64,000 bases of DNA. It comes from a virus. The translations under genes and the position numbers were made by a program. Location: the IMG/VR virus record IMGVR_UViG_3300029704_000004; one strand, written 5' to 3'. This document shows positions 3,001 through 54,024 of the stretch, one piece after another. How positions within the stretch are numbered: position 1 is the first letter of the stretch; each line of letters begins with the position of its first letter. A model generated the notes under the pieces. It did no database searches, had not been told where the DNA came from, and saw only the letters and a list, made by a program, of their open reading frames with translations.

Positions 3001-3234
3001 AATCTTCGTAATAACCAATACTATATAACTTTAAGTTATAACTTTAATCTTAATGATTATATAAGTCTTCATGATTATTCTTTTACTGCTAATTATAGAA
3101 CTTATAATAATAGTTATTTCTTTAACGAAAAAGTTGATAGAGCTAGACTATATGAGTTTGACGAATCTGAAACTGATTACAAAAATCTTGCTAGTGTTAA
3201 TAACGTTTTATATCCAACAATATATACTAAATAG
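1..3234 (+). CDS. large virion (tail-region) structural protein, 5' end outside window
   Basis: Frame 1 is open from nt 1 (AYEEKARIYRKPDEG...) into track ORF 163..3234, whose first codon is TTG, so the gene probably starts upstream of the window. No catalytic motif recognised. It sits upstream of the giant ejected-protein genes. Confidence 0.6.
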   Translation, partial: AYEEKARIYRKPDEGKAYEVSTNWEYHGGKITGSYTYNYKGELIIVVAESDAVDLNNNKIYVPLKTWNLNTGSTGLEHGIEESIPKAKVNYDITNGSLNCGVYTFFIRYQIDDYNYTKWFQITDDIIIINDEGKDVPIHNFLDSKSALTRYNTDGNGNPTTEFEPFLVNGNDKSNKGVYFTLDIDKSYKFTKYQIGYIVKHNDAVDGRIFNTYSIDITSLMFNTNTYIEEESVDEMLREPVQLYDVKNVINYNNRIYVSNYNENLNEDLTGNNKNVHVDIETKNISDYSKSVVTTKQLIITTNFAIGNSTSVNDVWAADKYTISKNEDLIEYVIKPEYITEFIRKFFTSAIKVFGYGSTISIDHDNIENLPNNPKNEPYMTRSRFSLYIGIISEGTSQQVAIYDSHSQKAINIDSIVIRNGYIVITIKGNKYLMNKSTDFQVLIEQDLFFRNGSTITQRAFYNQPLLHNPPYTYTMGYGMNSSAYEATTISSNNHTSPFNNFRSLIPGQIYSFYIHYIRKDGSATNGFIVQNEVDEKSNQSISDKEADTGAKFDVVVNNVGNKLFRVPTVANDNILIFPRFKVDVIPSNYIGWFGSYEKVEDMAYPCTIINGELNGHRFTVTNTNFEYKEDSIQGNKYFFIKSDEIGDNNTESLTSHVKPTIHPNISFGIVPKGNVGDKIVVYNDNKDVYNKSVKTLYRVTDNNYETGYSKDNHKYTPSFYNQDKIVTYNKEIIANPTASFVLNTNSQKLNGYTISMDDSYSYNKYPTNAYSIKQDYNEGAVSLTNEEGKSLGVYYNKVLSPDRLRDFLELKECYKSAPLKSYTNYSKDYIDSFDKTIRRSDVISDESLVNGFKNFNVEQYKIITENKGSITNIVGIGLYMLVHTQYSLFVFDRTPKLTQKSQLEVPDVFDIDYQEVLPSNEGFGGLARKEESILSKHGYIWFDSVNKVIFKFENGKAEILSTNINNLIKSLDIDYVVFGEDLKTNRLLICIWLNQTIDGNLRNNQYYITLSYNFNLNDYISLHDYSFTANYRTYNNSYFFNEKVDRARLYEFDESETDYKNLASVNNVLYPTIYTK

Positions 3235-3236
3235 AT

Positions 3237-5129: not shown

Positions 5130-5131
5130 TT

Positions 5132-8680: not shown

Positions 8681-8692
8681 AATAAATAAATA

Positions 8693-8725
8693 GTTCTAGT
8701 GAAATTTTGTTCACTAGAACTTTTA
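8693..8725 (+). terminator. intrinsic terminator
   Basis: Perfect 11-bp stem GTTCTAGTGAA / TTCACTAGAAC with loop ATTTTG, followed by TTTTAT. Lies 13 nt after the stop at 8680. Confidence 0.8.
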
Positions 8726-8736
8726 TCGTATATTTG
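8706..8736 (+). promoter_or_regulatory. Bacteroidetes-type promoter (-33 TTTG, -7 TATATTTG)
   Basis: TTTG at 8706-8709 and TAnnTTTG match TATATTTG at 8729-8736 with a 19-nt spacer. About 28 nt upstream of the ATG at 8764. Confidence 0.6.
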
Positions 8737-8763
8737 CATTAGTAATAATAAAAATAAATAGAT

Positions 8764-18421: not shown

Positions 18422-21400
18422 ATGGCTAATAATTGTAGTTTAAAATTTAATGAAACTAAGGTTTACACCAACCTTAAAGCTGAAGTTGGAAACGATGATG
18501 TTTTATTTAACAGCTTAATGAGTGCAGTAATTGATGGTTCTAGACCATCTGGTTTTAACAAGGAATTTGAAACCTATTATGCTAATAATTATGGTTCTAT
18601 TCCTAATACAAATGATGAAAGTAAAGAAGTTGCTACTGCTATTCAAAATTTTTATAAGAATAGAAATTTTAATGTAAATGAGCATACAACTGATTCTGCT
18701 TTCATTTCTGATGTTAAGTCTAAAGGTTATACTAGTACTGCTGCTAAAACTTGTGGTATTAGAACTACTGGTAATTTGATGTTAGCATTCTATCATAACG
18801 ATTTAATTAAAGGTCGTCTTGAAGAACATGCTGAAGATAGAAAAGATAATCTCGCAAATAGAGTTATAAATCGTATGTTGGGAGCTGTAGCAACAAATAT
18901 TCTTGAAGCTAGAAAAGTAGAAGCTACAAAAGAAGAAATTGCTAAAGTTCGTAAACAACTTATGAATACTAAGAGTAATGATTTTGTTAAGCTTGAGGAT
19001 GAAGTTTCTAAAACTACTCCTCAACTTAGAAATCAATTTGCTACTCTTAAAGATATGCTTTCTGATAAAGTTAAATATTTTACTCAAGTTATTCAAACTG
19101 ATGATAGACTTGGCGAAATTCGTTTTAAGAAAGATGATGATTTAAGTCAGCAAGAAGCAGATTGGAGTGAAAGTTTCGATATAGAAGATGATGATGATTT
19201 AAATCTTAACAATGCTGCTGATAATGCAAGTAACAACGAAAAAGATACTACTACTGCTCGTTGGGAAGATAATGGAACTAAATCTGACTTTATGAAAGAT
19301 TTTAGTTTTGCTGTTCGTAGTTATCTTTCAACTATTCCTAAACTTAGTAGTACAGAAGTAAGTGCTGACGGTAAATATCAATATGATAAAAGTAATCCTC
19401 TTGGAATGGTAGATTATATGGATTTTAAAGTCGTAAACTCTGCAATTAGAGGAGATATTGAAACTACTAATATTGATGCTTTTTTAAAGAAACTTGAAGA
19501 TATTGCAAAATCTAATAAAGAATATGCTGGTCTTGCTTATTTAGCTAATGACCTTAAAAAGAAACCAGATTTTGCTTATAAATTATTTCAAGTTTATAGA
19601 AGAAGAACTATAAGAAAACAGCAAGTTCGTATTGATGATAATTCTGTTTCTCCTACTAGAAGTAATAATCGTGCAGATAAACTTGAAACTTTAAGAATTA
19701 ATTATCTTAATGATATTAAGTCAACTGCTCTTAATATCATGATTGAAGATACTAATGATATTCTTGGAGCAATTAAAACTAAAATAGATGATTATAAGAC
19801 ACTTCAAAAAACTAAAGGATTTGATTTAAATAAACAAGCATTAAGTGCTGATATTATCAATGCTATTGCTAGTCGTTTAAAGCAATATTATCCTTCTCTT
19901 GATAAAGCTGCTATTGAAAGATTCGCTAGACTTAATGGAAAAGTTGACGGTAAAACTCCAAATATTGCTAATAATCTTACTCAACTTTATGGTTATCTTG
20001 AGAATACTGCAAAGTATGCTAACGAAACTCTTAATAATAAGCGAAATCTTGATAATAGATTTAAAGAAGCTAACAAGATTAAAGATAAGAAAGCTAAGAA
20101 AGAAGCTCTAGATAGTGTTCGTGAAGCTTATAAACAAGGCTATCTTTCTACTAATACAAAAGCTTATGCTCTTGAATTAGCTAAATCTTTAGCTCCATAT
20201 TCTGTAGTTAATATTGATTCTAATTCTACTAATGCTCTTGGTAATCAGTCTGCTGACCAAATTAATGACAGTATGATTACTAATTTCCTTAATGCAGTTA
20301 AAGCAACTTTAACTGAACAGCAAAAAGATGGAAGCAAAGTTTCTACTGAACTTATTAATTATGGAAAGTATAAGTTCCAAGGAGTACAATACAATCTTAG
20401 TGGTATTCTTATGGAACATCGTGATGAGAATGGTGCTGTAATTAATTATGGTCTTTTCTACAAAGATAAAGACGGTAATATTCAAATCACTAATTATGCT
20501 AGAGATATGGTTAATATCTCTTTGTTCGATGGTGCAGGAAATCCTAATACTAAAGATAATGTTCTTTATTCAGGTATGTCTAAAGGAGATTATGTATATA
20601 CAGGATTTGCTCAATACTTTAATACAGAGCAAAATCCTAAGATGCTTATGGGTGATTACTTTATGCGTATTCCTTCTGATGCTCCAAAGAACTTTGTAGT
20701 TCATGCTCCTAGATATAAAGTTGATGGCTTATTCTCTAAGATGCACGCTATTAAAAATGCTAAAGGTGAAGTTATAGCTAAAGAAGTTAGTGTTGATGAT
20801 ATTAACGAAAATCATCCAATAGTACAACAGTTTAGAAATATATTCAAACAGGAACTGTTGGATATGGTAAACTTTATCAACATTGTATTTGAAGTTAAAG
20901 AAAATACAGAAACTCTTGAAGATGGTACAGTTGTTGACCAAAGAGGAAGAATTGTATTTAATAATGACAATACTCCAATGTTTAAAAAAGGTTGGGGATT
21001 AGATGCTGAATCTGCTCGTAGAGTATTTGCTAATTATCATATTGGTAAAGGACATAAACATTTTATTGAAAAGAAAGGTGATGGTTGGGCATTTAATGGA
21101 CTTCTTTTTAAAGATGATAGATTTGTTCTTACAGATTATAAAACTGGTACAACTACAAAGTATGGTGACGATTTATTAAAATACTTGTTTCCTTCTCTTT
21201 ACGGGGGGGCTAGAGATGGCTTTATTCCTTTCACTACTAACGCTAATGGTGAAGTAGAACTTAACCTTACAGCAGACCAAGAAGCTATGATTACTAGAAT
21301 GGTTAAAGGTTTTGTAACTGACTATTCTAATAATGCTATTACTCGTATGAGCGAATATAAAGACCTTGACATTAATAATCTTATTAATGAAAAGAATAGT

Positions 21401-24400
21401 ATTGATTTTGCTCTTAATCATAGACTTATGTATATTGCTTTTAATGATATATTTGAAGGTGATACTAAGTTTTATAAAGATACTCAGACTTTCTTGAAAA
21501 GAAGTAAAGAGTCTCAAGCTAGTGGTGTTCCTTATGGTTTTGTTGATACAAGTCTTGACCTTAGAGAAAATAGCACAATAATTCAAGGAGCTTTTCTTAA
21601 TACTCCTGAAGTTCAATCTAGACTTAAAGCTATCGGTCTTGATGTTCAACAAAAGACTAAGTTTAATGGTATTACTATTAAGAATACTGTTAGAACTAGT
21701 GAGGAATGTAAAGTTGCTAAAACTTATCCAGATGGTAAAGTTGAAGGAGAAGATGGTATTCTTGTAAAAGACTTAGTAAAGAATTCTAAACTTACTCTTG
21801 AGCAAGCTAGAGATTTGATGGGCGGTCCTATTATGTATGATAATAATGGTAAGCCAAAACTTAATGCTGACGGAAGTTATAGACGTAGTGGTGGTTTTAG
21901 TAATACTACTATTAACGATGCTCAATCTTATATTACTTTTGAAGAATGGATTCGTCGTATTGCTGGTAGAGGTCAACTTAATGATTATCTTCCTTTGATT
22001 GAAGCTATTCAAGATGAAAGTAAAGAGATTCCTGCTGACTTATTGAAGAAGTTTGTGCAAGTACAGAAGAACTTCTACTATGACCAATATTATGATGATA
22101 AACTTAATACTATTGCTCCTCGTCAAATTAAGAATGCTGAATTTGTTCTTGTTCCAAGATTTATTAGAGGAACTCAACTTGAACAAGTTTATGAAGCAAT
22201 GAAAGCTAATAAGATTGACCAGCTTAATACTGAGGAAACTAGTAAAGCAGGTAAAGCTAGAGTACTTACTATCTTTGATGAGAAGACTGGTGAAGTTACT
22301 GAAGAGCATCTTAAAGATTTCAACAATAAAGCTGAAGATTATCGTGAGGAATACGATTATAATCATCTTTATACTCAGCAAGAAACTCCTCAACACATGA
22401 ATGCTAAGAATAAAGCTGGTATTCAGATTATGAAGAAGATACTTGATAATATTGATAGTAATAGTCCTCTTCATGCGTATAAAGAAGATTTCTTCAATAT
22501 GTATGTTGCTAATATTAAAGATAGTTTTAATAAGCTTGTTGATGAATTAAAGATTTCTCTTGATGAAGATGGTAATATTAAATTTGATGAGAGTGGAAAT
22601 ATTACAGGAGTAGATATGCAAGTATTCTTTGATAAACTCAAAGATGAGTGTATGAGACTTGGTCTTGATAGTAATATGATGGACTTTGTTACCCTTAATG
22701 CTAGTATGCCTATAGCTGCTAATGGTTGTCCAAATCCTGTAATGCCTACTTATCTTAGTAATGTAGTTAATAAGCTTGAGAGTATTTCCCAAGCTATGTT
22801 TAATAGTGCTATTACTCGACAAGAACTTCCTGGTTTTCATGCTGCTCAGATTACTAATGTTGGTTTTAAAGCAACTAAAGACCAAGTTAGTTATTCTAAA
22901 GAATTAAAGTATCATCCAAATGGTGAACGCTATATTGAAATAATGCTTCCTGCTAGTAATTTTGGCTTTGCTAAAAATGCTGATGGTACTTATAAAAAGA
23001 GCAAAGAAGAACTTCTTAAAGAACTTCAAGATGCTGGTCTTGATACTCTTATTGGTTATCGTATTCCAACTGAGGGTAAACAATCTGTTTGTGTAATGAA
23101 AGTAGTTGGTTTTCTTGATGATGCTCAAGGTTCTACTATTGTTGTTCCTGATGATTGGGTTTCTCAAACTGGTTCTGACTTTGATATTGACTCTGTATAT
23201 GGTATTCAATATAATACTTATATTGGAAGAGATGGTAATATTAAAAGAGCTACTTGGAAAGATACTGTAACTGAAAATGATTGGCTTAATTATGTAAGAA
23301 GAGAAACAGGTCTTAGACTTTCTGGTATCGACAATGAAAAATTTGAAAATATTAAGGCTGATGCTAAAGCTTCCACAAAAGCTGAGGCTAGAGATGCTAG
23401 AAAAGCAGAAATAGCAGAAATTAAAAATAGATTTGATGAAATTGAATCAGAAGCTTATTTTAATCTTGATGACGATACTAAAGAAGTTATTAAACTTATT
23501 CACGAAAAGATTAATGAAGCTTATGGACCAAAACCATCTAAAGCCAAGTATCAAGAACAGCTTGAAGTTGAAATATCTACTCTTACTGGTAGATTAGAAG
23601 AGTTCAAAGATATTTATATTGAAGAAGAATTAGATGCTATAAAAGATTATATTGAAGCTAAAAAACAAATTCTTAATAATGTTATAAATGGATTTGAACT
23701 ATCTGATGATTTTGATTATAATGCTATTAAATCTGAAAAGATTAAGAGTGCTATAAAAGCTTATAAAGATGAACAATTACGTTTAGCTAAACAAATTGCT
23801 AGAAGTTCTAGACTTTTACAATTTGAAGCTTATAAGAAGAAGTTTGATAGTGATGTTATTGGTAACAATACTCGTGAAGCTCGTAATAATAGACTTCTTG
23901 ATGATATGATTCATATTCTGCAAGCTAATGAATCTCTTGAAGAGAACCTTTCTCGTTCTAATTTTGAGAGTATTATTGCAGCTCGTGATAAAGTCATGAA
24001 TCCAGTAGTTAAAGAAGTTCGTGAAGCTAGAAGTCCTTATGACTTTCTTGACCAAGCTGCTTATCAAGAAGATGTAATGAGTGGTGCTAAACTTAAAGCG
24101 TTTAGTGTTACTAGAGATACTTTCTGTTCTGTATGTAATACAGTTCATCCTCATATTACAGATAAATATACTATTAAAGTTGCATATAGTAAAGATAAGT
24201 ATAATCTTGAAGAACTTCAAAAGAGATTTGAGAAAGTAGAAGAAACTGATGAAGGTTATGTTGTTACACATAATACTCTTGGTTGGACAAATGATAATAA
24301 AAATGTAGATGGTTATATTCTTACTGCATACAGTTCTCAGACTACTGCTCATATTCTTGATGCTGTTAAGGAAGGTGCTATTCCAAATGTAAATGATTTT

Positions 24401-27400
24401 ACTTTTGCAGTATATAAAACTCTTGCTGATATTGGTAGTAATTATGATACTGCTGTAGGTTTTATTATGCAACCTGCTATTACAAAAATTGTAAATGCTT
24501 ATAATGCTAATAAATCTATTTATTCAGATAAACATAATAAACCAATAGAAGAAGCTATTAGGTCATTAGGCAAAGAGATTCTTAATACTTATCATATTAA
24601 TACTGATAAAATGAATCTTGGTGAAATAGTTGCTAGAGTTAATGGATTACTTGGTACTAAGTATAGTTTAGATAAACATAATGATATTATTTTATCGCCT
24701 GATGAGTTAGCAAAGAGATTGCTTAATGATAAAAACCGCCCCGTAAAAGTAAGTATATATCAACATGATTGGGGTGTTCTTTTTGCTTATAATGATTTAG
24801 CTAAACTTTCTGATAAAATTGGTTCTACTGCAAGGGTTTGTAATCCTGATAGATTTGGTGCTAAACAAAGTATTTTCGCTACTCGTAAAGTATTTAATGA
24901 TATTGCAGATTTAATTGAAGATGAAAATCCAGCTTTAGTTGTTGGAACTTCTTCTATTGTTAATAGTATCTATGCAGGTTATGACCCTACTAAAGGTTTA
25001 AGAAGCTATATTACTAGTAATGCTAAAAGTGCATATCCTAGTCTTAATGCTTTCTTAAAATATGCTAGTGCTCCTTCTATTCTTGTAAATAGAATGTTGT
25101 TTGATACAGAACAAGATAATTTTAGAATAGCTAATAGAGCTATTGAAGTTATAAACGGTAGTAATAATGTTACTGAGAAAGATTATAAAGGTTTTACTCA
25201 GTATATTCTTAATGCTGCTTATAAACAAACAGATGCTGTTGTAAACAACTATACTTATGATGTAGAGAAGAAACAAACTATAGTAAATAAAGAATTTGAT
25301 GAAACGGATGAAGCTCTCAGAATTATGGGTTATGGTTGTACTCCTGATTTTACTTTTAATGTTAAAGATGTAACTAATCCTACACAAGAAGAAGTAAATG
25401 CTTGGAGTAAACTTAGTCCTGCTCAAAAAATTAGTTGGCTTAAATCTAATAGTGTTGATGCTGGTATATTCAATTATATAAATACTAATTTATTTAATGA
25501 ATATGAAATGAATAGAGATGGTCAAAGTCGTCAAACTATTCGTTTTAACGAAGATGCCGTTGATAATGAAACTGCTTATAATCTTTTTGATACTGCATTT
25601 AGTTCAGATAATCCATTAGTTAAACTTGCTGCTATGGATATGGTTAAGTATGCTTTTGTCGCAGAAGGTTTTAAAATAGGTAGAGGTGCTATTAATAAAT
25701 GTATTAAAAATACTGCTCTTCGTGATGAAAACACTTTTGTTCAATTTAATGGTGCTAGAACTAGTATTATTGCTCAAATTAAAGCTCAAGTAGATAATGC
25801 AGTTTCTAGAACTGATTTAGTTGAACAATATCTTAGAAGTGACCCAGGAGTTAGTAATGTTCCTCATAAATTTATGAATAAAAAATATAGTTCTATGTTC
25901 GAAACTGTAACTAGAGGAATGTACGAATTTAGTTTGGACGATAAAGATAATGCTATCGAATTTGGATTTGCTAGAGAAAGTAATGCAGAGTTCGTTCCAA
26001 TACAATTTAATAATTATATTTATATTACTAAAAAAGAAGGTAACGAAAGCGTTACTAGACTATATAAAATTGTTTCTCCTGACCTTGGTTCTGGTATAGG
26101 TTTTGCTTATCCATTAAATGGTTTGGAAGCTGGTGAAGATAGAGAAGTTAGTATTAATAATGCTAATAATAGTGTTCCTCTTCCAAGTTATTATGAAGCA
26201 GTTATTGATAACTTGATGAACAGTGAAGTTGCTGATTATACATTAGATGAATTAAATGAATTGTATAAGAAGCATGTTGCTACAACAAAAGTCAATAAAG
26301 TCAAAGCTGTTACACATTTTGATATAATGTCAGATGCTAATAATGATAATGGTGGAGCTAAAGATGCTATTAATAAGATTATTAAAACTTTCAACAATTA
26401 TGAAGGTAATAGAATCTTTATTCAAAATATGTATCTTTATGGTAAAACTAAATATGATTCATTTACTCCTCCTATTCATGTTGAAGGTGAAACTATTTCT
26501 AATGGTGGTGAACCTATTAGTATTAATGGAAACTTCTTATTTAGACGTGCTACTAAAGTAAGTATTGAAAGTCATAATATTCGTACAGGAGAACATATTG
26601 AGGAAAAACCTCAACTTGTTGAAATAGTTAGGGAAACTCCTATGGCTAGTTCTCGTGAAGAGGTAACTCTTGGTTCTGCAAGTTCTAAACTTGAACAAAG
26701 TCTTAGAACTACAACTGATTCTTTTGAAAAGAATATAGTAAAAGAACTTAATCGTAGAAGTGGTCTTGGAGATATAGAAGCTGGAAAACTTATGCGTCAA
26801 CTTCGTGGAGAAGGATTTGAACAAAGTACTAAAGGCTATAAAGAGTTTAAAGATAGCGTATTCTATAGTGGTTATGCTTATCTTAAACATAAAGTTAATA
26901 GTACTCTTGGAAAGTTTAGTCAATTCTACAGAGATGAAAATGGTAATTACTTTGCTATCAATAGTCCTGAAGTAATCAATGTTATTAAGAATAATCCTGC
27001 TTTACAAAGACAGTTCCTTGAAACACTTGCTGATGCTAATGCTATTGTTGATAAATTTGGAATTATTAATCAGATTAAAGCTGATGAAATTGAGAATCCT
27101 ACTTTGAAATTCTACATTGATGAAATGCAGAAGATGATTAAGGAACTCAGTAATAGTTCTATTATTGATGATGCAGAAGTTAAGTTTGGACTTGATTATC
27201 TTCAGAAACTTAGTAATGACCCTAATATTCAAAATGGTCTTATTAGTATATACGATGGTTTCCATTCTAGTGGTTGGCTTGATGCTTGGTTTGGTGATTT
27301 ACAAGAACAAGGTAACAGTCTTGTTCAAGTAGTTACTAGAAAAGTAATGGCTGATATTCGTGCTAAAGAAAGTCAAGCAAAAGATTTTGCTGTAGCTTTT

Positions 27401-30400
27401 GGAAAACATTTTGAAGACATTAAAGCTAGAGCTGCTAAAGTTGGTGTTTCAGTTGACATCAATAAGATATTTGATAAGAACGGAAATATAGTTCGTAATT
27501 ATACAGATAAATTTGTTGAAGATATTAAAGAACTTAAACGTAATGTAGCTAAAGCTAGAGTTAATGTTCAAGAGAATCCAATGGAATATATTCAAGCTAA
27601 ACATAAACTTGATAAGTTCCTTCTTGACCACGTTAATCGTGAATATGTTGATAGTTATTATCAGAAGCTTTATGATGAAGATGAATTTATTATTAATAAT
27701 CATCCTCAAATTTATTCTGAGTATGTAAAACTTCGAGAAGCTATTAGACAGATTAATAGTCGTAGAATTGATGGCGTTTTAAGTAAAGAGTTTGAAGATA
27801 AACTTGTCGAACTCAGAACTAAGATTAATGATTTAACTAGTCAATTTATTGGTAATGAGTATAAGCCAGCTTACGAATATGGTTTTCCTGGTACTGAACA
27901 AGCTCCTGATGGTAGCATTATTGTAACTAATCAAGAAGTTTATGATAATGCTCGTAAACAGTCTCTTAATGATGCCGTTCAATTAGACCAATATCTTAGA
28001 AGAATTAAAGATATTAAGGAAGAATATACTGCTAAAGAGGAGAAAGAGGGTTTCCATGATATGCTTGATAAAATGCTTAATATTATTGATAATGCTGAAG
28101 TTAGAGATTCTAACGGTAAAGTCACTACTCCAGCTAGTCAGCTTGACACTAATAAAGAGTATAAGAAAGCTAAAGAATGGATTGCTAATAATGCTCATTG
28201 GTCAGTAGATGATGTTCTTAAAGTTAGAATTGAAGATGCTTATAAAAAACTTGGTATTACTAATTTCAAAGCTTCTAAAGCTAGAGCATTTATTAAAGAT
28301 AAACTAGCTAAAGGTGAACAGATTTATGATGAGTTTGGTAATATTGATGCTAGTAAGTTTACTAATACAGAGATTGCTGCAATTAAAGAAGACGTAGAAC
28401 GTAATTATGGTACAACTAATACCTCTTTATTCTCTGATAGAAATCTTATAAATTCAGCTGAACCAACTAATGAAGCTGCTCCTAGTGAGTTCTTTAAAAT
28501 GCTTAATAGTGGCGGTATGACTAATCCTGAGTATCAAGAGATTATCACTAAGATTAATAATATTACTCGTAAATATTATAATAGTGCTGCTAAAATAGTT
28601 GAAACTTCTAAGATGAGTATCGAAGATTTGAAATCTCTTGGAGACCTTTACGATGAATTAGATAAAACTAAGAAACATAAAGGAAAAGGCAGTTACGATG
28701 CTTATCAAGCATATAGTAAATATGCTAAAGAAAATGTAAACGAACAAGCTTATTATTCTGAAGAAGATGAAGCTAAGAAGCGAACTGAACCAGAGTTCTA
28801 TACTTTATGGAAGCGAGTTAATGCTAGATATGAAGTTCTTAGAGATAAGAAAGGTAAAATAGTTATTGATGAAACAACTGGTAAAGCTGTTTATGATTTA
28901 ACTAAAGCACCAACACCTAATCATTGGCTTTATACTACTATTGCTCCTAATGATGCTTATTGGGAAGATTTAAACAAACGTGACCCTAAAGAAGCAGCCA
29001 GACAAAAGAAAGAAGTTGAGGATAAAACTAAAGCTCAAGAGTTCCTTAGTAATACTCTTGAAACTATTAATACTCCTCAATATTATAAAGCTAAAAATGC
29101 TGCTCTTGCAAAAGGTATCGCTTATTATAAAGAATGGTATAATAACAATCATGTTTACAATCCATTTACTCATGCTTACGAAGCTCTTCCTATTTGGAAT
29201 AGAACAAGAGTTATTCCTAGTATAGATAATGGTGAGTATTCTCCTAATTGGACTCAGACTACTCTTACTCCTAAAGCTCATTATAAGAATCCAAATTATA
29301 TTGAAGGCTATACAGATAATGAAAATTATAAAACTGTTGAAACTGATGATAAAAATGGAACTACTCATGTTCCTGGTTATGATAATAATTTAGGACTTAA
29401 TGAGTACGAGCAAGAAGCTAAACAATATATTCAAGATACTCTCATGAGTTTTGCTAAAACTGAAACTGCAAAGAGAGCTATTGCTAGTGGAATGGCTCCT
29501 CATAGAGCTAAGAAAGCAGAACATGACGCTAAATGGGCTGCAAAGCAAGCTAAAGAGTTTATTGGATTTAGTGATATGCTTCCTAGCGGTAAAGATAGTT
29601 GGTATGAGAAGATTGATTACTCTGAAGATAGAACTATCGATATGCCTATGCTAATGACTCAACTTAAAAATAAGGAGAGTGTTGACTTGGATAATATTCG
29701 TAGTACTAAACCGAAGAGAGAAACTTATGCTAGTGATGAAGCTTATGAAAAAGATTTAGAAGCTTATCAAAAACGTATTGATGAAGCAATTAAGAAAAAC
29801 GAAGAAATACATCAAAAACTTCTTGATAGAGATTATATTGGTGCTATTCAAGATTTCATTAGTGCTGCCGGACATTATAATGCTATTCAAGACAATAAAC
29901 AATTATTGTTCTATACACATAGAATGTTAGGTAAGATGAAAGCTTATGATACTAATCTTGGTTGGAATAACTTACGTAAAGATAGTCAAACTAGTACAAG
30001 TGATGAAACTTCTTATATTGAGAAAGTTGATACTCGTCTTCAAGAACAATTTGATAACTGGGTTCGTAGATTAGTTTATGACCAATATAAAATTCCTCAG
30101 AATAAGTTAACTAGAACTGCTAGTATGCTTCAAAGTTTTACTAGTGCTAAATTTATGATGTTAAACATTACGGGTGGTATTGGTAACATAACTGTTGGTG
30201 AATCTGCTATTGCTGGAGAATATATAGCTAAAGAGTACTTCACTCCTACAGGTTGGTTAAAAGGAAAGAACATGTGGAGACATGCTATTCCAAGCTTTAT
30301 TAGAGGTATGGCTAACGAAGATAGTACAACACTTGCTGATGCTCTTGTTAAGTTTATGAATATTGTTGACTTTGATGAAGTTAATAATAGACCTACAGTA

Positions 30401-31831
30401 CATCTTGATGCTGATACTGTTCTTAATAAGATTAGAGACTTTATGTATAGTCCTAATAGTATGGGTGAGCATTTCATGCAGAATGGTGCTATGTTTAGTA
30501 TGTTCTTTGATAATAGAATGGTTAAAGTTCCAGACGCTGAAAGTAATGGAAGACTTGGTTATGAAGCTATGACTTGGGAACAATATAAAAATAAGTTCCA
30601 CGAATATGCTATGAGAAATATTATTGGAGGTAATGAAGAACTTCTTAATAAATATGAAACATTTAAAAAGGATATTCTTGCTGACGATAATAAAAAGAAA
30701 GAGTATGTTTGGAATCGTAGAGATATTAATACTGAGTTTGCTAATCTGTATCTTACAAAGGAACAGAAGAAACAATTTATCACTGAAAAAAAGAAGCTTG
30801 AGAAAGAAGCTAAAGTTAAGTTTGAAGAACTTCCTACAGTAATGGACCAAGTTGACCTTAAAGATGGAAGACTTGCTTTTAAAGAAGGAAGTATTCTTGC
30901 TGAACTTCAAGCTAAATCTAAAGATAAAGAAGTAGGTGATGGTTATATGTTCCTTGGATATATGAAAGGCAAAGTTATTTCAGTTAATAAGAAGATTCAC
31001 GGAGTATATGATAAACTTGGTGCTGCTCAACTCGAAAAACAATGGTGGGGTTCATTAGCTATGCAGTATCATAAACATATTTATCCTGGAGTTATGAAAC
31101 ATTATCGTAGAAAAGGTTATTTCAATGAAGAAAGAGGAACTAAAGAAATAGGTTGTGCTCCTGCTTTATTTGATTTCCTTACTACTCCTATCAGAAAACT
31201 TAGATACGAAAAAGAAATGTCTGATGGTCAAGTAGAAGTATTGGAAAGTCTTCAGGTACTTCTTAAAGGTTATGCTGAGTTTGCAATGAATTTACAAACT
31301 AATTGGCAGTTAATGCCGAAATGGCAAAGAGCAAGTATTGAACGTGCTGCTGGTGATGTAGTTGGTGCTCTTGGTGGCATTTGTACTGCTCTTGCTGTTC
31401 GTTGTATTTGGGACGATGATGATTTAAAAAATAGTCTTTGGGGTAATCTTATGCTTTATGAAGCTGATGAGTTAACTACTCAGTCAATGATGTATAATAT
31501 GTTGTTCTTACCACAACAGTTTGACCAATTATGGTCTAGTCCTATTGCAGGTGTAACTGCTGGTAAAGATATAATGGCTGCTTGTAATAATATCGCTGCT
31601 TATGTAATGGATGACGATTATGACCCTAATTATACTAGCGGTCGTTATGCAGGTCAAAACAAGATTATTGTTAAACTTGGTCGTCAAATTCCAATTTACA
31701 GAAGTCTTAATAACCTTGCTACTCTTGATAAAGCTAATAGTTATTATAAGACTGGTGATAATCTTCTTACTTTGATTAATGTAAAAGATTGGGCTAATGA
31801 TATTAGAGGTACTAGTAGTCTAGAACGTTAA
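18422..31831 (+). CDS. giant virion-associated two-barrel DNA-dependent RNA polymerase-like protein
   Basis: Uninterrupted 4469-aa ORF. QTGSDFDIDSVYG places DFDID at 23177-23191 (residues 1586-1590), a DxDxD metal-binding signature of two-barrel RNAPs. Size and position match the giant RNAP genes of crAss-like phages. Confidence 0.75.
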   Translation: MANNCSLKFNETKVYTNLKAEVGNDDVLFNSLMSAVIDGSRPSGFNKEFETYYANNYGSIPNTNDESKEVATAIQNFYKNRNFNVNEHTTDSAFISDVKSKGYTSTAAKTCGIRTTGNLMLAFYHNDLIKGRLEEHAEDRKDNLANRVINRMLGAVATNILEARKVEATKEEIAKVRKQLMNTKSNDFVKLEDEVSKTTPQLRNQFATLKDMLSDKVKYFTQVIQTDDRLGEIRFKKDDDLSQQEADWSESFDIEDDDDLNLNNAADNASNNEKDTTTARWEDNGTKSDFMKDFSFAVRSYLSTIPKLSSTEVSADGKYQYDKSNPLGMVDYMDFKVVNSAIRGDIETTNIDAFLKKLEDIAKSNKEYAGLAYLANDLKKKPDFAYKLFQVYRRRTIRKQQVRIDDNSVSPTRSNNRADKLETLRINYLNDIKSTALNIMIEDTNDILGAIKTKIDDYKTLQKTKGFDLNKQALSADIINAIASRLKQYYPSLDKAAIERFARLNGKVDGKTPNIANNLTQLYGYLENTAKYANETLNNKRNLDNRFKEANKIKDKKAKKEALDSVREAYKQGYLSTNTKAYALELAKSLAPYSVVNIDSNSTNALGNQSADQINDSMITNFLNAVKATLTEQQKDGSKVSTELINYGKYKFQGVQYNLSGILMEHRDENGAVINYGLFYKDKDGNIQITNYARDMVNISLFDGAGNPNTKDNVLYSGMSKGDYVYTGFAQYFNTEQNPKMLMGDYFMRIPSDAPKNFVVHAPRYKVDGLFSKMHAIKNAKGEVIAKEVSVDDINENHPIVQQFRNIFKQELLDMVNFINIVFEVKENTETLEDGTVVDQRGRIVFNNDNTPMFKKGWGLDAESARRVFANYHIGKGHKHFIEKKGDGWAFNGLLFKDDRFVLTDYKTGTTTKYGDDLLKYLFPSLYGGARDGFIPFTTNANGEVELNLTADQEAMITRMVKGFVTDYSNNAITRMSEYKDLDINNLINEKNSIDFALNHRLMYIAFNDIFEGDTKFYKDTQTFLKRSKESQASGVPYGFVDTSLDLRENSTIIQGAFLNTPEVQSRLKAIGLDVQQKTKFNGITIKNTVRTSEECKVAKTYPDGKVEGEDGILVKDLVKNSKLTLEQARDLMGGPIMYDNNGKPKLNADGSYRRSGGFSNTTINDAQSYITFEEWIRRIAGRGQLNDYLPLIEAIQDESKEIPADLLKKFVQVQKNFYYDQYYDDKLNTIAPRQIKNAEFVLVPRFIRGTQLEQVYEAMKANKIDQLNTEETSKAGKARVLTIFDEKTGEVTEEHLKDFNNKAEDYREEYDYNHLYTQQETPQHMNAKNKAGIQIMKKILDNIDSNSPLHAYKEDFFNMYVANIKDSFNKLVDELKISLDEDGNIKFDESGNITGVDMQVFFDKLKDECMRLGLDSNMMDFVTLNASMPIAANGCPNPVMPTYLSNVVNKLESISQAMFNSAITRQELPGFHAAQITNVGFKATKDQVSYSKELKYHPNGERYIEIMLPASNFGFAKNADGTYKKSKEELLKELQDAGLDTLIGYRIPTEGKQSVCVMKVVGFLDDAQGSTIVVPDDWVSQTGSDFDIDSVYGIQYNTYIGRDGNIKRATWKDTVTENDWLNYVRRETGLRLSGIDNEKFENIKADAKASTKAEARDARKAEIAEIKNRFDEIESEAYFNLDDDTKEVIKLIHEKINEAYGPKPSKAKYQEQLEVEISTLTGRLEEFKDIYIEEELDAIKDYIEAKKQILNNVINGFELSDDFDYNAIKSEKIKSAIKAYKDEQLRLAKQIARSSRLLQFEAYKKKFDSDVIGNNTREARNNRLLDDMIHILQANESLEENLSRSNFESIIAARDKVMNPVVKEVREARSPYDFLDQAAYQEDVMSGAKLKAFSVTRDTFCSVCNTVHPHITDKYTIKVAYSKDKYNLEELQKRFEKVEETDEGYVVTHNTLGWTNDNKNVDGYILTAYSSQTTAHILDAVKEGAIPNVNDFTFAVYKTLADIGSNYDTAVGFIMQPAITKIVNAYNANKSIYSDKHNKPIEEAIRSLGKEILNTYHINTDKMNLGEIVARVNGLLGTKYSLDKHNDIILSPDELAKRLLNDKNRPVKVSIYQHDWGVLFAYNDLAKLSDKIGSTARVCNPDRFGAKQSIFATRKVFNDIADLIEDENPALVVGTSSIVNSIYAGYDPTKGLRSYITSNAKSAYPSLNAFLKYASAPSILVNRMLFDTEQDNFRIANRAIEVINGSNNVTEKDYKGFTQYILNAAYKQTDAVVNNYTYDVEKKQTIVNKEFDETDEALRIMGYGCTPDFTFNVKDVTNPTQEEVNAWSKLSPAQKISWLKSNSVDAGIFNYINTNLFNEYEMNRDGQSRQTIRFNEDAVDNETAYNLFDTAFSSDNPLVKLAAMDMVKYAFVAEGFKIGRGAINKCIKNTALRDENTFVQFNGARTSIIAQIKAQVDNAVSRTDLVEQYLRSDPGVSNVPHKFMNKKYSSMFETVTRGMYEFSLDDKDNAIEFGFARESNAEFVPIQFNNYIYITKKEGNESVTRLYKIVSPDLGSGIGFAYPLNGLEAGEDREVSINNANNSVPLPSYYEAVIDNLMNSEVADYTLDELNELYKKHVATTKVNKVKAVTHFDIMSDANNDNGGAKDAINKIIKTFNNYEGNRIFIQNMYLYGKTKYDSFTPPIHVEGETISNGGEPISINGNFLFRRATKVSIESHNIRTGEHIEEKPQLVEIVRETPMASSREEVTLGSASSKLEQSLRTTTDSFEKNIVKELNRRSGLGDIEAGKLMRQLRGEGFEQSTKGYKEFKDSVFYSGYAYLKHKVNSTLGKFSQFYRDENGNYFAINSPEVINVIKNNPALQRQFLETLADANAIVDKFGIINQIKADEIENPTLKFYIDEMQKMIKELSNSSIIDDAEVKFGLDYLQKLSNDPNIQNGLISIYDGFHSSGWLDAWFGDLQEQGNSLVQVVTRKVMADIRAKESQAKDFAVAFGKHFEDIKARAAKVGVSVDINKIFDKNGNIVRNYTDKFVEDIKELKRNVAKARVNVQENPMEYIQAKHKLDKFLLDHVNREYVDSYYQKLYDEDEFIINNHPQIYSEYVKLREAIRQINSRRIDGVLSKEFEDKLVELRTKINDLTSQFIGNEYKPAYEYGFPGTEQAPDGSIIVTNQEVYDNARKQSLNDAVQLDQYLRRIKDIKEEYTAKEEKEGFHDMLDKMLNIIDNAEVRDSNGKVTTPASQLDTNKEYKKAKEWIANNAHWSVDDVLKVRIEDAYKKLGITNFKASKARAFIKDKLAKGEQIYDEFGNIDASKFTNTEIAAIKEDVERNYGTTNTSLFSDRNLINSAEPTNEAAPSEFFKMLNSGGMTNPEYQEIITKINNITRKYYNSAAKIVETSKMSIEDLKSLGDLYDELDKTKKHKGKGSYDAYQAYSKYAKENVNEQAYYSEEDEAKKRTEPEFYTLWKRVNARYEVLRDKKGKIVIDETTGKAVYDLTKAPTPNHWLYTTIAPNDAYWEDLNKRDPKEAARQKKEVEDKTKAQEFLSNTLETINTPQYYKAKNAALAKGIAYYKEWYNNNHVYNPFTHAYEALPIWNRTRVIPSIDNGEYSPNWTQTTLTPKAHYKNPNYIEGYTDNENYKTVETDDKNGTTHVPGYDNNLGLNEYEQEAKQYIQDTLMSFAKTETAKRAIASGMAPHRAKKAEHDAKWAAKQAKEFIGFSDMLPSGKDSWYEKIDYSEDRTIDMPMLMTQLKNKESVDLDNIRSTKPKRETYASDEAYEKDLEAYQKRIDEAIKKNEEIHQKLLDRDYIGAIQDFISAAGHYNAIQDNKQLLFYTHRMLGKMKAYDTNLGWNNLRKDSQTSTSDETSYIEKVDTRLQEQFDNWVRRLVYDQYKIPQNKLTRTASMLQSFTSAKFMMLNITGGIGNITVGESAIAGEYIAKEYFTPTGWLKGKNMWRHAIPSFIRGMANEDSTTLADALVKFMNIVDFDEVNNRPTVHLDADTVLNKIRDFMYSPNSMGEHFMQNGAMFSMFFDNRMVKVPDAESNGRLGYEAMTWEQYKNKFHEYAMRNIIGGNEELLNKYETFKKDILADDNKKKEYVWNRRDINTEFANLYLTKEQKKQFITEKKKLEKEAKVKFEELPTVMDQVDLKDGRLAFKEGSILAELQAKSKDKEVGDGYMFLGYMKGKVISVNKKIHGVYDKLGAAQLEKQWWGSLAMQYHKHIYPGVMKHYRRKGYFNEERGTKEIGCAPALFDFLTTPIRKLRYEKEMSDGQVEVLESLQVLLKGYAEFAMNLQTNWQLMPKWQRASIERAAGDVVGALGGICTALAVRCIWDDDDLKNSLWGNLMLYEADELTTQSMMYNMLFLPQQFDQLWSSPIAGVTAGKDIMAACNNIAAYVMDDDYDPNYTSGRYAGQNKIIVKLGRQIPIYRSLNNLATLDKANSYYKTGDNLLTLINVKDWANDIRGTSSLER
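21193..21215 (+). repeat. GC-rich motif family, copy 5 (+), slightly divergent
   Basis: TTCTCTTTACGGGGGGGCTAGAG, translated SLYGGARD. Confidence 0.85.
24733..24756 (-). repeat. GC-rich motif family, copy 6 (-)
   Basis: Plus strand reads AAACCGCCCCGTAAAAGTAAGTAT, translated KNRPVKVSI. Confidence 0.85.
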
Positions 31832-31844
31832 ACATTAAATGGTT

Positions 31845-31870
31845 ATAGCCGCCCCGTAAAAGGAATGTAT
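31845..31870 (-). repeat. GC-rich motif family, copy 7 (-), intergenic
   Basis: Plus strand reads ATAGCCGCCCCGTAAAAGGAATGTAT, starting 14 nt after the RNAP stop codon. Confidence 0.9.
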
Positions 31871-31945
31871 GGTTCATAAGCATTAAATAAGTTTAATCGT
31901 AGTAAATTAATTGCCTTCAACTGTTGGAGATATAAATATTATTTG

Positions 31946-31953
31946 TATCTTTG
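31946..31953 (+). promoter_or_regulatory. Bacteroidetes-type -7 box TATCTTTG upstream of the tRNA
   Basis: Matches TAnnTTTG. The context GTATCTTTGCAT resembles GTATATTTGCAT at 8728. Lies in the loop of a 10-bp inverted repeat (31914-31923 / 31957-31966), about 74 nt upstream of the tRNA. Confidence 0.5.
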
Positions 31954-32026
31954 CATCAGTTGAAGGTTTTCTTGTTCTAAGCAAAATGGTTTTAAAGTTT
32001 TAATTAAAATGTATGCGAAACTTTAT

Positions 32027-32097
32027 TGCTCTATGGTGTAATGGTAGCACTACAGATTTTGGTTCTGTCAGTGGTGGTTCGAATCCGCCTAGAGTAA
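32027..32097 (+). tRNA. tRNA-Gln (anticodon UUG)
   Basis: Hand-folded cloverleaf. Acceptor TGCTCTA/TAGAGTA (one G-U pair). D arm GTGT-AATGGTA-GCAC. Anticodon arm ACAGA-TTTTGGT-TCTGT with TTG at 32059-32061. Variable loop CAGT. T arm GGTGG-TTCGAAT-CCGCC. U1-A72 is typical of bacterial tRNA-Gln. No encoded CCA. Confidence 0.8.
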
Positions 32098-32251
32098 CAT
32101 ATCTTTATTCTGTTGTTTAACAGATATTATTTTATTCATAATTAAAGTTTTAATGTATAAAGTTAAGTGATGGCTGATAATGTAATCCAATGCTGAACTA
32201 GCGAGTTCATTCTATTCTCATTTTTAAATAAATAAATTAACGGGAAATGAA

Positions 32252-32289
32252 GCAGTAAGTAATCGTGATGATTATTTACTGCTTTTTTT
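32252..32289 (+). terminator. intrinsic terminator
   Basis: 13-bp stem GCAGTAAGTAATC / GATTATTTACTGC (one G-U pair) with loop GTGAT, followed by TTTTTTT. Confidence 0.8.
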
Positions 32290-32556
32290 GTACTCAACAA
32301 AATGTGTTGAAACGTGTCGCCTAATGGATAAAAAAAAGAGTAACCTAACCTCACGGTCAAGCTACTCAAGTCAATGCTAAATTTTTAATCTGTGAACTAC
32401 AGCCGCTGCTGTAATAAATAACAAACAACATTATAAACGAATTTAAATCATTATAGTATATAATATGATATTATAGCAAGTATCAAATTTAATATTTCAA
32501 TTTCTTCTGTAAGCGGCTAATTAATTCAAGTAATATAATTAATCGAATCATATATG

Positions 32557-32707
32557 AAAGTCGCTCAGACGTTAAATAAACTGGGTTGTGGGCGTTTCCC
32601 ACGAGTGGCATAGTTTACTATCTCGTATGCCTGGAGACCGAAATAAGACGAGCAAGTATAATGATTAATTGAACTAGACTCAATTTATTTAGCGTCTAAG
32701 CTACTTT
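32557..32707 (+). ncRNA. candidate structured RNA domain closed by a 22-bp long-range helix
   Basis: 32557-32580 pairs with 32684-32707 (5 + 3 + 14 bp, two 1x1 mismatches, one U-G that is valid only on the plus strand). It encloses 103 nt of GC-richer sequence with local hairpins (GTGGG-CGTTT-CCCAC at 32588-32602, GGCAT/ATGCC). No credible ORF. Class unknown. Confidence 0.3.
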
Positions 32708-32794
32708 AGTGTTACGGCTGAACAATTATTCAGGAGATTAGAATCACCCTCGTATAGAGGATTTCAAAATGTAGGATGTGCCATATAGCTCAAC

Positions 32795-33052
32795 TTAATT
32801 AAAAGGAGCTTTAATTATATTACCATTTGCATCAAGATAAATAACACTGTCTGTAGAATAACCATCATTAGTGGTATCAACATCATTGATTTCATAATAA
32901 TCATCATTAATTCCACATGAATCTGTTGTATCTACAGGTTCTGTATTATTAGTATCTTTTCTATTGTTATATGAACATGCTACAAGAATAGATACTATAA
33001 TCGTTAATACAACGATAATATTTCTTCTATGTTTATTATAATTCTCATTCAT
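32795..33052 (-). CDS. small putative lipoprotein
   Basis: 85 aa. The N-terminal hydrophobic stretch ends in the lipobox-like LVAC (IIVVLTIIVSILVAC). Confidence 0.55.
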   Translation of the reverse strand: MNENYNKHRRNIIVVLTIIVSILVACSYNNRKDTNNTEPVDTTDSCGINDDYYEINDVDTTNDGYSTDSVIYLDANGNIIKAPFN

Positions 33053-33063
33053 TTTATTTAAAT

Positions 33064-33096
33064 AAAAACTCCTAGTACTTTCACAAGCACTAGGAG
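33064..33096 (-). terminator. intrinsic terminator (minus strand) with conserved TTTCACAAG-type loop
   Basis: 8-bp stem CTCCTAGT / ACTAGGAG. The plus-strand A5 run at 33064-33068 gives a U-run after the stem on the minus-strand RNA. Confidence 0.65.
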
Positions 33097-33142
33097 CAAC
33101 CGTTTAATTTTAAATTTTAGAAATATGAATATAATAATCAGT

Positions 33143-40594: not shown

Positions 40595-40873
40595 TTACTT
40601 TTTAAATGTTTTACAATAAGTACATTTATGTACTCGTTTATTAATTAACCAACCATATTCTTTAGCAATAGAATCAAGTTCATCAATATCTAATGAAAGA
40701 AATGGTTTGTCTTTTCCTTTTCTATGTAATAAAGTACCACATTTATCACATTTTAAAGTATATCCTACTCCATTTTGTACATAAGCCATATTCTGTAATA
40801 TTTTAAATTCTCGTATAACGTATTGAAATTTGGGTCGTGTATAATTGTTCCACAATTTACCAAAATGTCTCAT
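40595..40873 (-). CDS. small zinc-ribbon protein
   Basis: CDKCG ... CTYC pairs of cysteines. Confidence 0.5.
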   Translation of the reverse strand: MRHFGKLWNNYTRPKFQYVIREFKILQNMAYVQNGVGYTLKCDKCGTLLHRKGKDKPFLSLDIDELDSIAKEYGWLINKRVHKCTYCKTFKK

Positions 40874-41012
40874 ATAAAGCTAAAAAGTGACAAATTTTGA
40901 AACTTCGATACACGTACCGGATTGGATGCCCAGGGCACTTGAGATAAATATAATATTTCAAATTCTCGTGTAAGGCGTTCAAATTCAATTTGTTACAGAG
41001 ATATAAGCAGAC

Positions 41013-53587: not shown

Positions 53588-53616
53588 AGTTTATTTAATA
53601 TTTTAAATTCTAATTT

Positions 53617-53643
53617 ACATACCTTTTACGGGGCGGCTTTATG
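53617..53643 (+). repeat. GC-rich motif family, copy 14 (+), intergenic
   Basis: ACATACCTTTTACGGGGCGGCTTTATG. Confidence 0.9.
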
Positions 53644-53706: not shown

Positions 53707-54024
53707 CTAGCGTACACGTAGAGTAATTGACCATTCTGCCAGGTCGAAATCGAAAGGTGTGTTAACATTCTCAGGTATTATAGTTATAAGTTTATGAACT
53801 TCATTATCAGCTTTAATAACTGCTTTAGCACCAACTACAACACCATAAAGTTTATTAATTCTACCTTTATTCTCAAGCTTTACAGAATCATTAACTTCAA
53901 GGTTAGAATTTCTAAGAACTACATCAGCTATTACATTTTCGTAATATTTAATTTGTTCTTTACAATCTTCTATTCCTTTAAGAAATTTTCTATAATCTAA
54001 AGGATTTAAATTAACTTCATCCAT
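53707..54024 (-). CDS. hypothetical small protein
   Basis: 105-aa ORF with an 8-nt overlap to the helicase gene. Confidence 0.55.
   Translation of the reverse strand: MDEVNLNPLDYRKFLKGIEDCKEQIKYYENVIADVVLRNSNLEVNDSVKLENKGRINKLYGVVVGAKAVIKADNEVHKLITIIPENVNTPFDFDLAEWSITLRVR

Follow-up and report, generated by a model that had tools for sequence, protein, structure and literature searches.

Several RNAs are encoded by phages, for example the packaging RNA of phi29 and the stable RNAs C and D of T4, and some of them lie beside transfer RNA (tRNA) genes. Phage transcripts can also carry RNase III stalks, such as the early intergenic sites of T7 and lambda sib, in which, as in the processing stems of ribosomal RNA, distant segments pair into a duplex of at least 20 base pairs (bp). 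crAss-like phages rank among the most abundant human gut viruses, and very little is known of their non-coding RNAs. Here we describe an element in a stretch of 64,000 nucleotides (nt) from the IMG/VR virus record IMGVR_UViG_3300029704_000004, hereafter the window, in which positions 32098 to 32794 had been singled out from the sequence as a candidate for a structured RNA of no known class. Covariation, and an Rfam 15 search in which nothing but tRNA was found, bear out that proposal, whereas the strand and the extent that it assumed do not hold. The conserved element is only the right two thirds of the flagged stretch, about 32330-32770, and we consider it rather probable that this is a clade-specific, single-copy locus for a non-coding RNA, read from the minus strand as the last transcription unit of the replication arm.

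The only comparable report on crAss phages that we found concerns the Cellulophaga crAss-like phage phi14:2, in which two abundant early long non-coding RNAs come from the g004-g006 intergenic regions (bioRxiv 10.1101/2020.03.07.982082). These RNAs are co-directional with the adjoining small early genes, and no function has been assigned to them (bioRxiv 10.1101/2020.03.07.982082). Catalogues of structured RNAs from IMG/VR and from the human microbiome have been compiled from similar data by a comparative method, and neither mentions crAss phages (PMC10690425, PMC8040213). The element may figure among the 10,006 unnamed candidates of these studies, a listing that could not be checked; in the crAss literature we found no description of it.

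Structure and conservation of the element

The window is about 98% identical to the crAss-like phage cr8_1 (NC_055877; Intestiviridae, Obtuvirinae, Fohxhuevirus) over 31800-33100. The C-terminus of a giant protein encoded to the left of the element was used to fetch 69 related viral contigs, in dozens of which 32301-32794 is conserved according to BLAST and profile searches. Motif scans of viral and metagenome collections widened the family, which now comprises about 95 distinct sequences from one crAss clade (57 at less than 97% identity) and includes three distant lineages (L023; L042/L085; L122/L158/L142). The element is best explained as a composite of about 260-440 nt, in which a folded 5′ domain of about 260 nt would be followed by a shared box, a variable spacer and a terminator. 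In the order of the minus sense its parts are as follows:

32761..32769, minus strand: upstream box, TTTTGAAAT in the minus sense (family consensus WTTTRAWWT), a candidate promoter element or 5′ boundary
32747..32760, minus strand: small variable hairpin CCUC-UAUAC-GAGG in the 27-nt leader
32711..32739, minus strand: invariant 6-bp hairpin (32718-32733, CUGAAU-AAUU-GUUCAG) with its flanks AUCUY... and ...YCGUAA
32676..32706, minus strand: 5′ arm (minus sense) of the long-range helix, from inverted repeat and covariation
32588..32675, minus strand: enclosed core with hairpins 32588-32602 (GUGGG-AAACG-CCCAC) and 32607-32631
Within 32588..32675, minus strand: conserved single-stranded stretch of the core, ..ACUUG..GUCUUAUUUC..CUCC.GG
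32558..32587, minus strand: 3′ arm (minus sense) of the long-range helix, from inverted repeat and covariation
32513..32557, minus strand: AU-rich linker of constant length, about 45 nt, between helix and 23-nt box, containing GAUUAAUYAUA
32490..32512, minus strand: near-invariant 23-nt box, TTACAGAAGAAATTGAAATATTA in the minus sense
32413..32489, minus strand: hypervariable AU-rich spacer with insertions and deletions, poorly alignable between lineages
32399..32412, minus strand: small hairpin H1, ACAGC-AGCG-GCUGU, with a covarying stem
32330..32367, minus strand: intrinsic terminator from the terminator scan, with a 13-bp stem at 32338-32367, a GUGA (GNRA) loop and U8 at 32330-32337

All-against-all covariation between columns was swamped by phylogenetic signal, and helix-level counts were therefore used instead. 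In an 11-sequence alignment in the minus sense, 96.4% of the cells of four helices are paired, compared with 33-41% when the partners are slid, and 12 pairs are changed on both sides, compared with 1-5 in the slid controls; none of 500 shuffles reaches this. The covariance model built from this alignment recovers every distant member at 59-78 bits and finds nothing in non-family loci or in phi14:2. When all of the structure is counted in 20 sequences including the distant lineages, 22 pairs are changed on both sides and 96.1% of the cells are paired, a proportion somewhat inflated by the fitting of this alignment to the model structure; the slid controls give 4-10 pairs and 31-44% of the cells, and again 0 of 500 shuffles reach the value. 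Covariation in related phages had been named in advance as the check on the long-range helix, and in these 20 sequences 20 of its 23 pairs are changed on both sides, with 94.4% of its cells paired. Plain inspection and single-sequence folds also reveal a helix of similar length and entirely different sequence in the distant lineages. With covariation of this strength, an evolutionarily conserved structured RNA is strongly supported.

The long-range helix, first described as 22 bp, is real and longer: 32558-32587 pairs with 32676-32706, and no inverted repeat of the region is longer than the underlying one, for which the repeat scan gave arms of 30 nt (32557-32586 with 32678-32707). Across the family the helix spans 23-31 bp. 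It begins 9-10 nt past the invariant hairpin and closes a three-way junction, inside which the nested stems that had been suspected are found as the two hairpins of the core. This core is conserved in the four nearer lineages, and the three most distant ones carry shorter, unrelated inserts. The duplex predicted between the arms, about 23-31 positions in every lineage, has the length expected of an RNase III site (about 20 bp or more).

In the hairpin preceding the helix, the stem and flanks are identical in all members, the most distant included, and only the loop and the sixth pair vary, the latter being U-A or U.G in the alignments and C-G in L041 (read by eye). It occurs once in the window. 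The WTTTRAWWT box lies exactly 27 nt upstream of this hairpin in 51 of the 57 representatives, and the distance is kept even where the intervening 27 nt are non-homologous between lineage variants: another variant has a different, longer hairpin in a leader of the same length. A closing helix between this leader and the 23-nt box, suggested by RNAalifold, was rejected, as it does no better than shuffled leaders (mean z +0.33). On the other side of the long helix, the linker 32513-32557 is almost gap-free across 16 diverse sequences.

Three short hairpins had been noticed at the outset. The one placed at 32397-32412 is real at 32399-32412 (H1), where both sides are changed in three of five pairs, and it is missing from the most distant lineage; those at 32110-32123 and 32295-32309 lack conservation, and what is conserved, at 32301-32321, is a pair of direct-repeat boxes. 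The hexamers AGCCGC and GCGGCT, pointed out as mutually complementary, are indeed so, and they would allow an alternative pairing of H1 with 32513-32519, in which 79% of the cells pair, compared with 20-56% in slid controls; compensatory changes are few, several changes are uncompensated, and the alignments argue only weakly for this pairing. The likeness of these hexamers to a dispersed motif of this genome, AGCCGCCCCGTAAAAG, is not conserved in relatives. The local GC-richness that had been noted exists in a modest form in the core 32475-32775 (0.33-0.39 compared with about 0.23-0.30 nearby).

A search of the Rfam models had likewise been proposed. At gathering thresholds, Rfam 15 returned nothing but tRNA, in the window as in eight related loci; the classes without a match include ROOL, GOLLD, HEARO/OMEGA guides, tmRNA and 6S, as well as group I/II introns, retron msr, ribozymes and YrlA. 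With the region alone and E values up to 10, only noise was obtained. The best score, 20 bits, belonged to the Bacteroides small RNA (sRNA) BTnc231, whose gathering score is 80 and of which only the terminator hairpin, with the same CGUGAG loop, was aligned confidently (high posterior probability).

Other identities have also been set aside. The view that the stretch holds no credible open reading frame (ORF) proved sound: the ORFs of 68 and 40 amino acids (aa) span terminators or helices (both terminators in the case of the 68-aa ORF, 32163-32369), lack conservation and match neither Pfam nor PHROG. A small protein or type I toxin-antitoxin system was rejected, since the ORFs after the 23-nt box vary by lineage in frame, length and presence and have no Pfam match. 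A riboswitch or cis-regulatory leader was rejected because the minus strand past the terminator leads only to the convergent plus-strand tRNA-Gln and giant gene, so that no gene follows that such a leader could serve. The long helix around a structured core has a superficial likeness to the terminal inverted repeats of retrons; the flanking genes encode a lipoprotein, a thioredoxin-like protein and a dUTPase, and the annotation of cr8_1 by its depositors contains no reverse transcriptase. A miniature transposable element or insertion sequence end does not fit either, as the element is single copy, and thus not a mobile repeat, and its arms covary instead of being conserved in sequence. Homology with the non-coding region of phi14:2 was rejected, as neither the profile nor the covariance model has a match in phi14:2 1-9000.

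Strand and transcription signals

The preliminary description leaned towards the plus strand, where the RNA would continue from the tRNA gene. The family favours the minus strand, convergent with the tRNA. At the left end of the element lies a strong minus-strand terminator that had been missed (32338-32367, with the U-tract at 32330-32337): its stem-loop is followed directly by the U-tract, as in an intrinsic (Rho-independent) terminator, it is conserved family-wide, and its lower stem covaries in the distant lineages. The 13 contiguous pairs, the GUGA loop and the U8 exist on the minus strand only, because four positions that are G.U there are A-C on the plus strand. In the per-pair tables of the 11-sequence alignment, G.U occupies 26 cells of the structured pairs when these are read in the minus sense, compared with 6 for the plus sense. 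Taken in isolation, the helix arms pair more stably as minus-sense RNA in 41 of 55 representatives, with a mean advantage of 3.2 kcal/mol; most of the distant lineages shown are among them, and L042 is a tie. The whole 441-nt unit reaches -106.2 kcal/mol (z -4.68) in the minus sense and -90.8 kcal/mol (z -2.03) in the plus sense. A single U-G pair of the helix had been taken to favour the plus strand, which is marginally right for the arms of this sequence (-31.8 kcal/mol for plus compared with -30.0 kcal/mol for minus) and reversed across the family; it was this near-tie that misled the first reading.

The loop of the terminator, C-GUGA-G, is common to 32338-32367, to about 53886-53917 in the cr8_1 record and to BTnc231 of Rfam, which suggests that a GNRA-capped terminator design may be favoured in this host-phage system.

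The 23-nt box connects the locus with other parts of the genome. It is present in four copies in the window, compared with 0.01 expected, all on the minus strand, and in five copies in the complete cr8_1 genome, all on that strand as well. The remaining copies in the window are:

40796-40818, minus strand: copy of the 23-nt box
40951-40973, minus strand: copy of the 23-nt box
53596-53618, minus strand: copy of the 23-nt box

Two copies precede the ATG of a replication-arm gene by 6-9 nt (homologues of cr8_1 gp17 and gp31), with one tandem copy upstream, and relatives with a different coding sequence retain the 6-nt spacing between box and ATG. In the element, the stretch upstream of the box resembles the upstream regions of those genes; GAUUAAUCAUA of the linker recurs upstream of the copy at 53596. 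The box may be read as a promoter that would yield leaderless or near-leaderless mRNAs. A viral-collection scan with its AT-rich core was too unspecific to interpret. The fifth copy, at 53837-53859 of the cr8_1 record and outside the window, lies in the 454-nt intergenic region between gp68 and the portal gene, opposed to the flanking genes, and its locus gives a 31.6-bit partial match to the covariance model. Taken together, the copies point to leaderless transcription units, and there may be a second non-coding or antisense unit.

A separate 16-nt motif, AGCCGCCCCGTAAAAG, is dispersed over the window, with 12 sites at no more than two mismatches where 0 are expected:

7541, 24734, 31847, 35028, 41062, 48716, 53623, 60650 and others (12 in all): sites of AGCCGCCCCGTAAAAG

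The copies are mostly co-directional with the local genes, and those with inspected context stand just past a stop codon or in intergenic sequence, one of them upstream of tRNA-Gln and one directly upstream of a copy of the 23-nt box. The motif may serve the phage as a promoter, as a terminator or as a processing signal.

Flanks, neighbouring genes and distribution

The flagged interval is the convergence of two arms, with a plus-strand arm to the left and minus-strand genes to the right. The features bordering the element are:

32027-32098, plus strand: tRNA-Gln, after the giant gene
32249..32292, plus strand: terminator of the tRNA-Gln unit, with a 17-pair stem at 32249-32285 and a T-run (terminator scan)
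32301..32321, not assigned to a strand: two direct-repeat boxes, ATGTGTY .. GTGTCGC, about one helical turn apart
32795..33052, minus strand: lipoprotein-like gene of 85 aa with signal peptide and lipobox (..ILVAC), upstream of the RNA

The plus-strand terminator seen at the outset was found again by the scan (32249-32285 and T-run). It stands at the same place in all lineages and is the convergent boundary, outside the RNA. The RNA of about 190 nt that had been proposed to run from the tRNA to this terminator was rejected, as the stretch is unstructured and unconserved: the trailer 32099-32248, called highly pairable, folds no better than shuffled sequence (z = +1.09) and is conserved in the closest relatives only. 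The interval 32099-32292 is the trailer and terminator of tRNA-Gln and not part of the element. The direct-repeat boxes are present family-wide, more weakly in some distant members, and lie in the gap of about 40 nt separating the convergent terminators. As they are outside both predicted transcripts, they are probably a DNA-level site.

The structural arm closes with an ORF of 4469 aa (18422-31831, plus strand), annotated in cr8_1 as 'nuclear pore complex-like protein' and containing GSDFDIDSVYG. The virion RNA polymerase of crAss phages has DFDID as its catalytic motif, and thus appears to be embedded in a giant fusion protein. Between this gene and the tRNA there is a terminator-like hairpin (31914-31966, plus strand; 26-nt arms and a T-run). 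On the right, the minus-strand genes of the replication arm are the 85-aa lipoprotein-like ORF, a thioredoxin-like gene, a dUTPase gene and others, and another terminator-like hairpin (33068-33097, minus strand) lies between the thioredoxin-like and lipoprotein genes, leaving about 16 nt before the ATG. GC skew turns at the convergence site, where the cumulative GC skew peaks. The lipoprotein-like ORF is conserved even in the distant members (MNKNYNKH...CCSQ), has an acidic stretch after the lipobox cysteine and matches neither Pfam nor PHROG; its product is probably a surface lipoprotein, possibly serving superinfection exclusion.

Throughout the family the gene order is invariant: giant virion protein gene, tRNA-Gln, convergent terminators, RNA element and lipoprotein gene of 79-85 aa. 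The nearest outgroup (L012, L037) has neither the element nor the lipoprotein gene, and the two co-occur strictly elsewhere; in more distant crAss phages this place is taken by short gaps or by other tRNAs. A different non-coding unit of about 200-270 nt, with a minus-strand terminator as its boundary, occupies it in L012 (5590-5855), where it has G+C-rich hairpins, and in L038 (6110-6385). A non-coding unit at its end may be a general feature of the replication arm.

The element occurs once in the window and once in the complete cr8_1 genome. Its identity between lineages is 71-77%, compared with 73-83% for the neighbouring protein genes, so that it diverges no faster than they do. Around tRNA-Gln (about 31800-32300) the genomes are mosaic, with arms of very unequal divergence joined: in L015 and L016 the right arm is 94-96% identical to the window and the giant gene only 67%, and in L009 the reverse is seen. 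In L002-L006 the flanks are about 99% identical, yet another 'allele' of helix and core is found at 32570-32700 (91% overall), matching that of a distant lineage (L032 type); this patch seems to have been exchanged by recombination. Contig ends fall within about 1.6 kb (window-equivalent about 30995-32637) in five assemblies (L014, L016/L078, L021/L081, L035/L092, L041/L069), in four of them at the circular break point, which could reflect sequence shared between strains or a physical genome end.

Competing readings and relation to known systems

If the locus encodes a free-standing RNA, its production and action can be outlined as follows. Transcription would start near the conserved box 27 nt upstream of the invariant hairpin, or would read through from the lipoprotein gene, and would end at the GNRA-capped intrinsic terminator to give an RNA of about 430 nt. 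The 5′ half would fold into the invariant hairpin followed by the long duplex, free in sequence and kept in pairing, with the three-way-junction core within. The 23-nt box would be an internal promoter for an additional short RNA of about 150 nt. The product would act as RNA. The invariant hairpin beside a freely covarying duplex suggests two recognition modes, one by sequence and the other by shape: the hairpin would be a sequence-specific protein-binding site, and the duplex a double-stranded platform that a double-stranded RNA (dsRNA)-binding protein or RNase III could recognise or cut, thereby stabilising or releasing the RNA.

Several points weigh against this outline. Transcription is predicted, and all family members come from uncultured phages. 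The canonical Bacteroides promoter TTTG..TAnnTTTG shows no enrichment in the window, nor does it match anywhere in this region, and the 23-nt box could be an RNA operator instead of a promoter. The fixed spacings of 27 nt and 45 nt find no explanation in the model. The invariant hairpin is also a palindrome in DNA and its stem does not covary, so that recognition could occur at the DNA level. In addition to the fitting of the 20-sequence alignment and to the slight preference of the window's own helix arms for the plus sense, single-sequence energies of the whole domain do not separate the strands (23 compared with 31 representatives).

The alternative that survives best, unlikely as we hold it to be, is that the folded domain acts in cis as the 3′ untranslated region (UTR) of the lipoprotein gene or replication-arm operon, in which case the duplex would serve for processing of the RNase III type or for retro-regulation, as in lambda sib or the T7 intergenic sites, and a separate short transcript would start at the 23-nt box. 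A 3′ UTR would fit the constant association of the RNA with the 85-aa gene and their joint absence from the nearest outgroup, the distance of only about 25 nt from the stop codon to the conserved box, the 23-31 bp kept while the sequence changes freely, as for a structure-specific dsRNA site, and the resemblance of the surroundings of the 23-nt box to true gene-upstream regions. However, it needs neither the invariant hairpin and its flanks nor the junction core nor the fixed 27-nt distance, the terminator already present between the thioredoxin-like and lipoprotein genes leaves the operon structure ambiguous, and cleavage of the duplex is so far a prediction.

It is quite improbable that the conserved features act instead as DNA, as the core of a site-specific recombination or multimer-resolution system, as a terminus of replication or as a packaging site where the arms converge, in which proteins would bind the direct-repeat boxes and the shared box. 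An 11-6-11 layout can be read into the invariant 28 bp, ATCTYCTGAA-TAATTA-TTCAGYCGTA, where the palindrome arms are invariant around a varying centre and only the inner 5 bp are palindromic. Spacings are fixed between elements of unrelated sequence, direct repeats are conserved in an untranscribed gap, and the GC skew turn and the end of both arms coincide with the site. The prototypic crAssphage has been reported with circular and linear forms and a plasmid-like lifestyle (PMC10983915), which would suit such a site, as would the mosaicism of the genomes and the breaks of several assemblies nearby; these breaks are, however, equally explained by sequence common to co-occurring strains. In contrast, a helix of 23-31 bp around an insert of 45-90 nt, with 20 of 23 pairs compensated and strand-asymmetric wobbles, is the signature of a single-stranded RNA and not of duplex DNA, and the cr8_1 record annotates no recombinase except RecT. 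A multi-copy operator was rejected, the palindrome being single copy in the window, and so was a mimic of host dif or a host homologue, only scattered chance matches having been found in 185,579 species genomes; Bacteroidales genomes show no enrichment of the motif, and no genome match fits the family profile. As to a replication origin, an AT-rich spacer and two direct repeats are present, but both arms end and the cumulative GC skew peaks at this site. Origins of the prototypic crAssphage have been predicted where the replication arm starts, at the opposite arm junction, and this speaks against an origin here.

The structured plus-strand RNA first proposed, running rightwards from beside or after the tRNA through the long helix, is very unlikely: the energies of the window's arms, U.G in some predicted plus-sense pairs and the ambiguous single-sequence domain energies speak for it, and against it stand the strong plus terminator that halts tRNA transcription at 32292, the unstructured and unconserved trailer, the wobbles, arm stabilities and unit z scores given above, and the conserved left-end terminator that works on the minus strand only.

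The non-coding minus-strand RNA thus being preferred, a more far-reaching and rather doubtful proposal can be attached to it, namely that it is a new class of crAss-phage RNA in which a core and spacer, variable between lineages and exchanged by recombination, would be displayed by a protein-binding hairpin of invariant sequence and a dsRNA stalk of free sequence, and would serve as a specificity determinant or decoy. The variable part might act in phage-host or phage-phage conflict, for example by titrating a factor that recognises the 23-nt box, and together with the linked surface-lipoprotein gene might form a two-part accessory cassette; both extensions are as speculative as the proposal itself.

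Whichever role applies, the element now has precise bounds, is supported by covariation and assigned to a strand, and has a covariance model that works across the clade, and the 23-nt box, by tying the locus to replication-arm gene starts, offers a handle on the organisation of transcription or translation. If expressed, the RNA would lend itself well to structure probing, pull-downs and metatranscriptome mapping; if not, it would be an orphan motif among thousands of similar candidates.

Compared with the known systems, the locus shares with phi14:2 a large ORF-free stretch in a crAss-like phage, near small early or replication-arm genes. The phi14:2 region, however, is about 1.7 kb long and lies at the start of an arm, whereas the element lies at the convergent end; there is no similarity in sequence or model between them, and transcription is shown there and inferred here. 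Like the packaging RNA of phi29 and the stable RNAs C and D of T4, the element combines conserved structure with divergent sequence. The phage has a conventional terminase, the element has neither sequence nor structural similarity to these RNAs, and a role in the virion or in packaging is without support.

The candidate had first been likened to the large ornate RNAs of the GOLLD and ROOL kind. With these and with orphan Rfam motifs it has in common that it is a phage-borne structured RNA beside a tRNA gene, supported by covariation; unlike GOLLD and ROOL, it is much smaller, converges on the tRNA instead of sharing its orientation, is confined to one crAss clade and has no Rfam match. RNase III stalks resemble it in that pairing is conserved over sequence, that they enclose or follow a functional RNA, and that they lie between or after genes and beside a terminator. 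To such a stalk, in which cleavage would here be a prediction only, the element adds an invariant hairpin, a conserved junction core and a shared 23-nt box. Its description as a new, clade-restricted RNA family of a familiar general kind is well supported.

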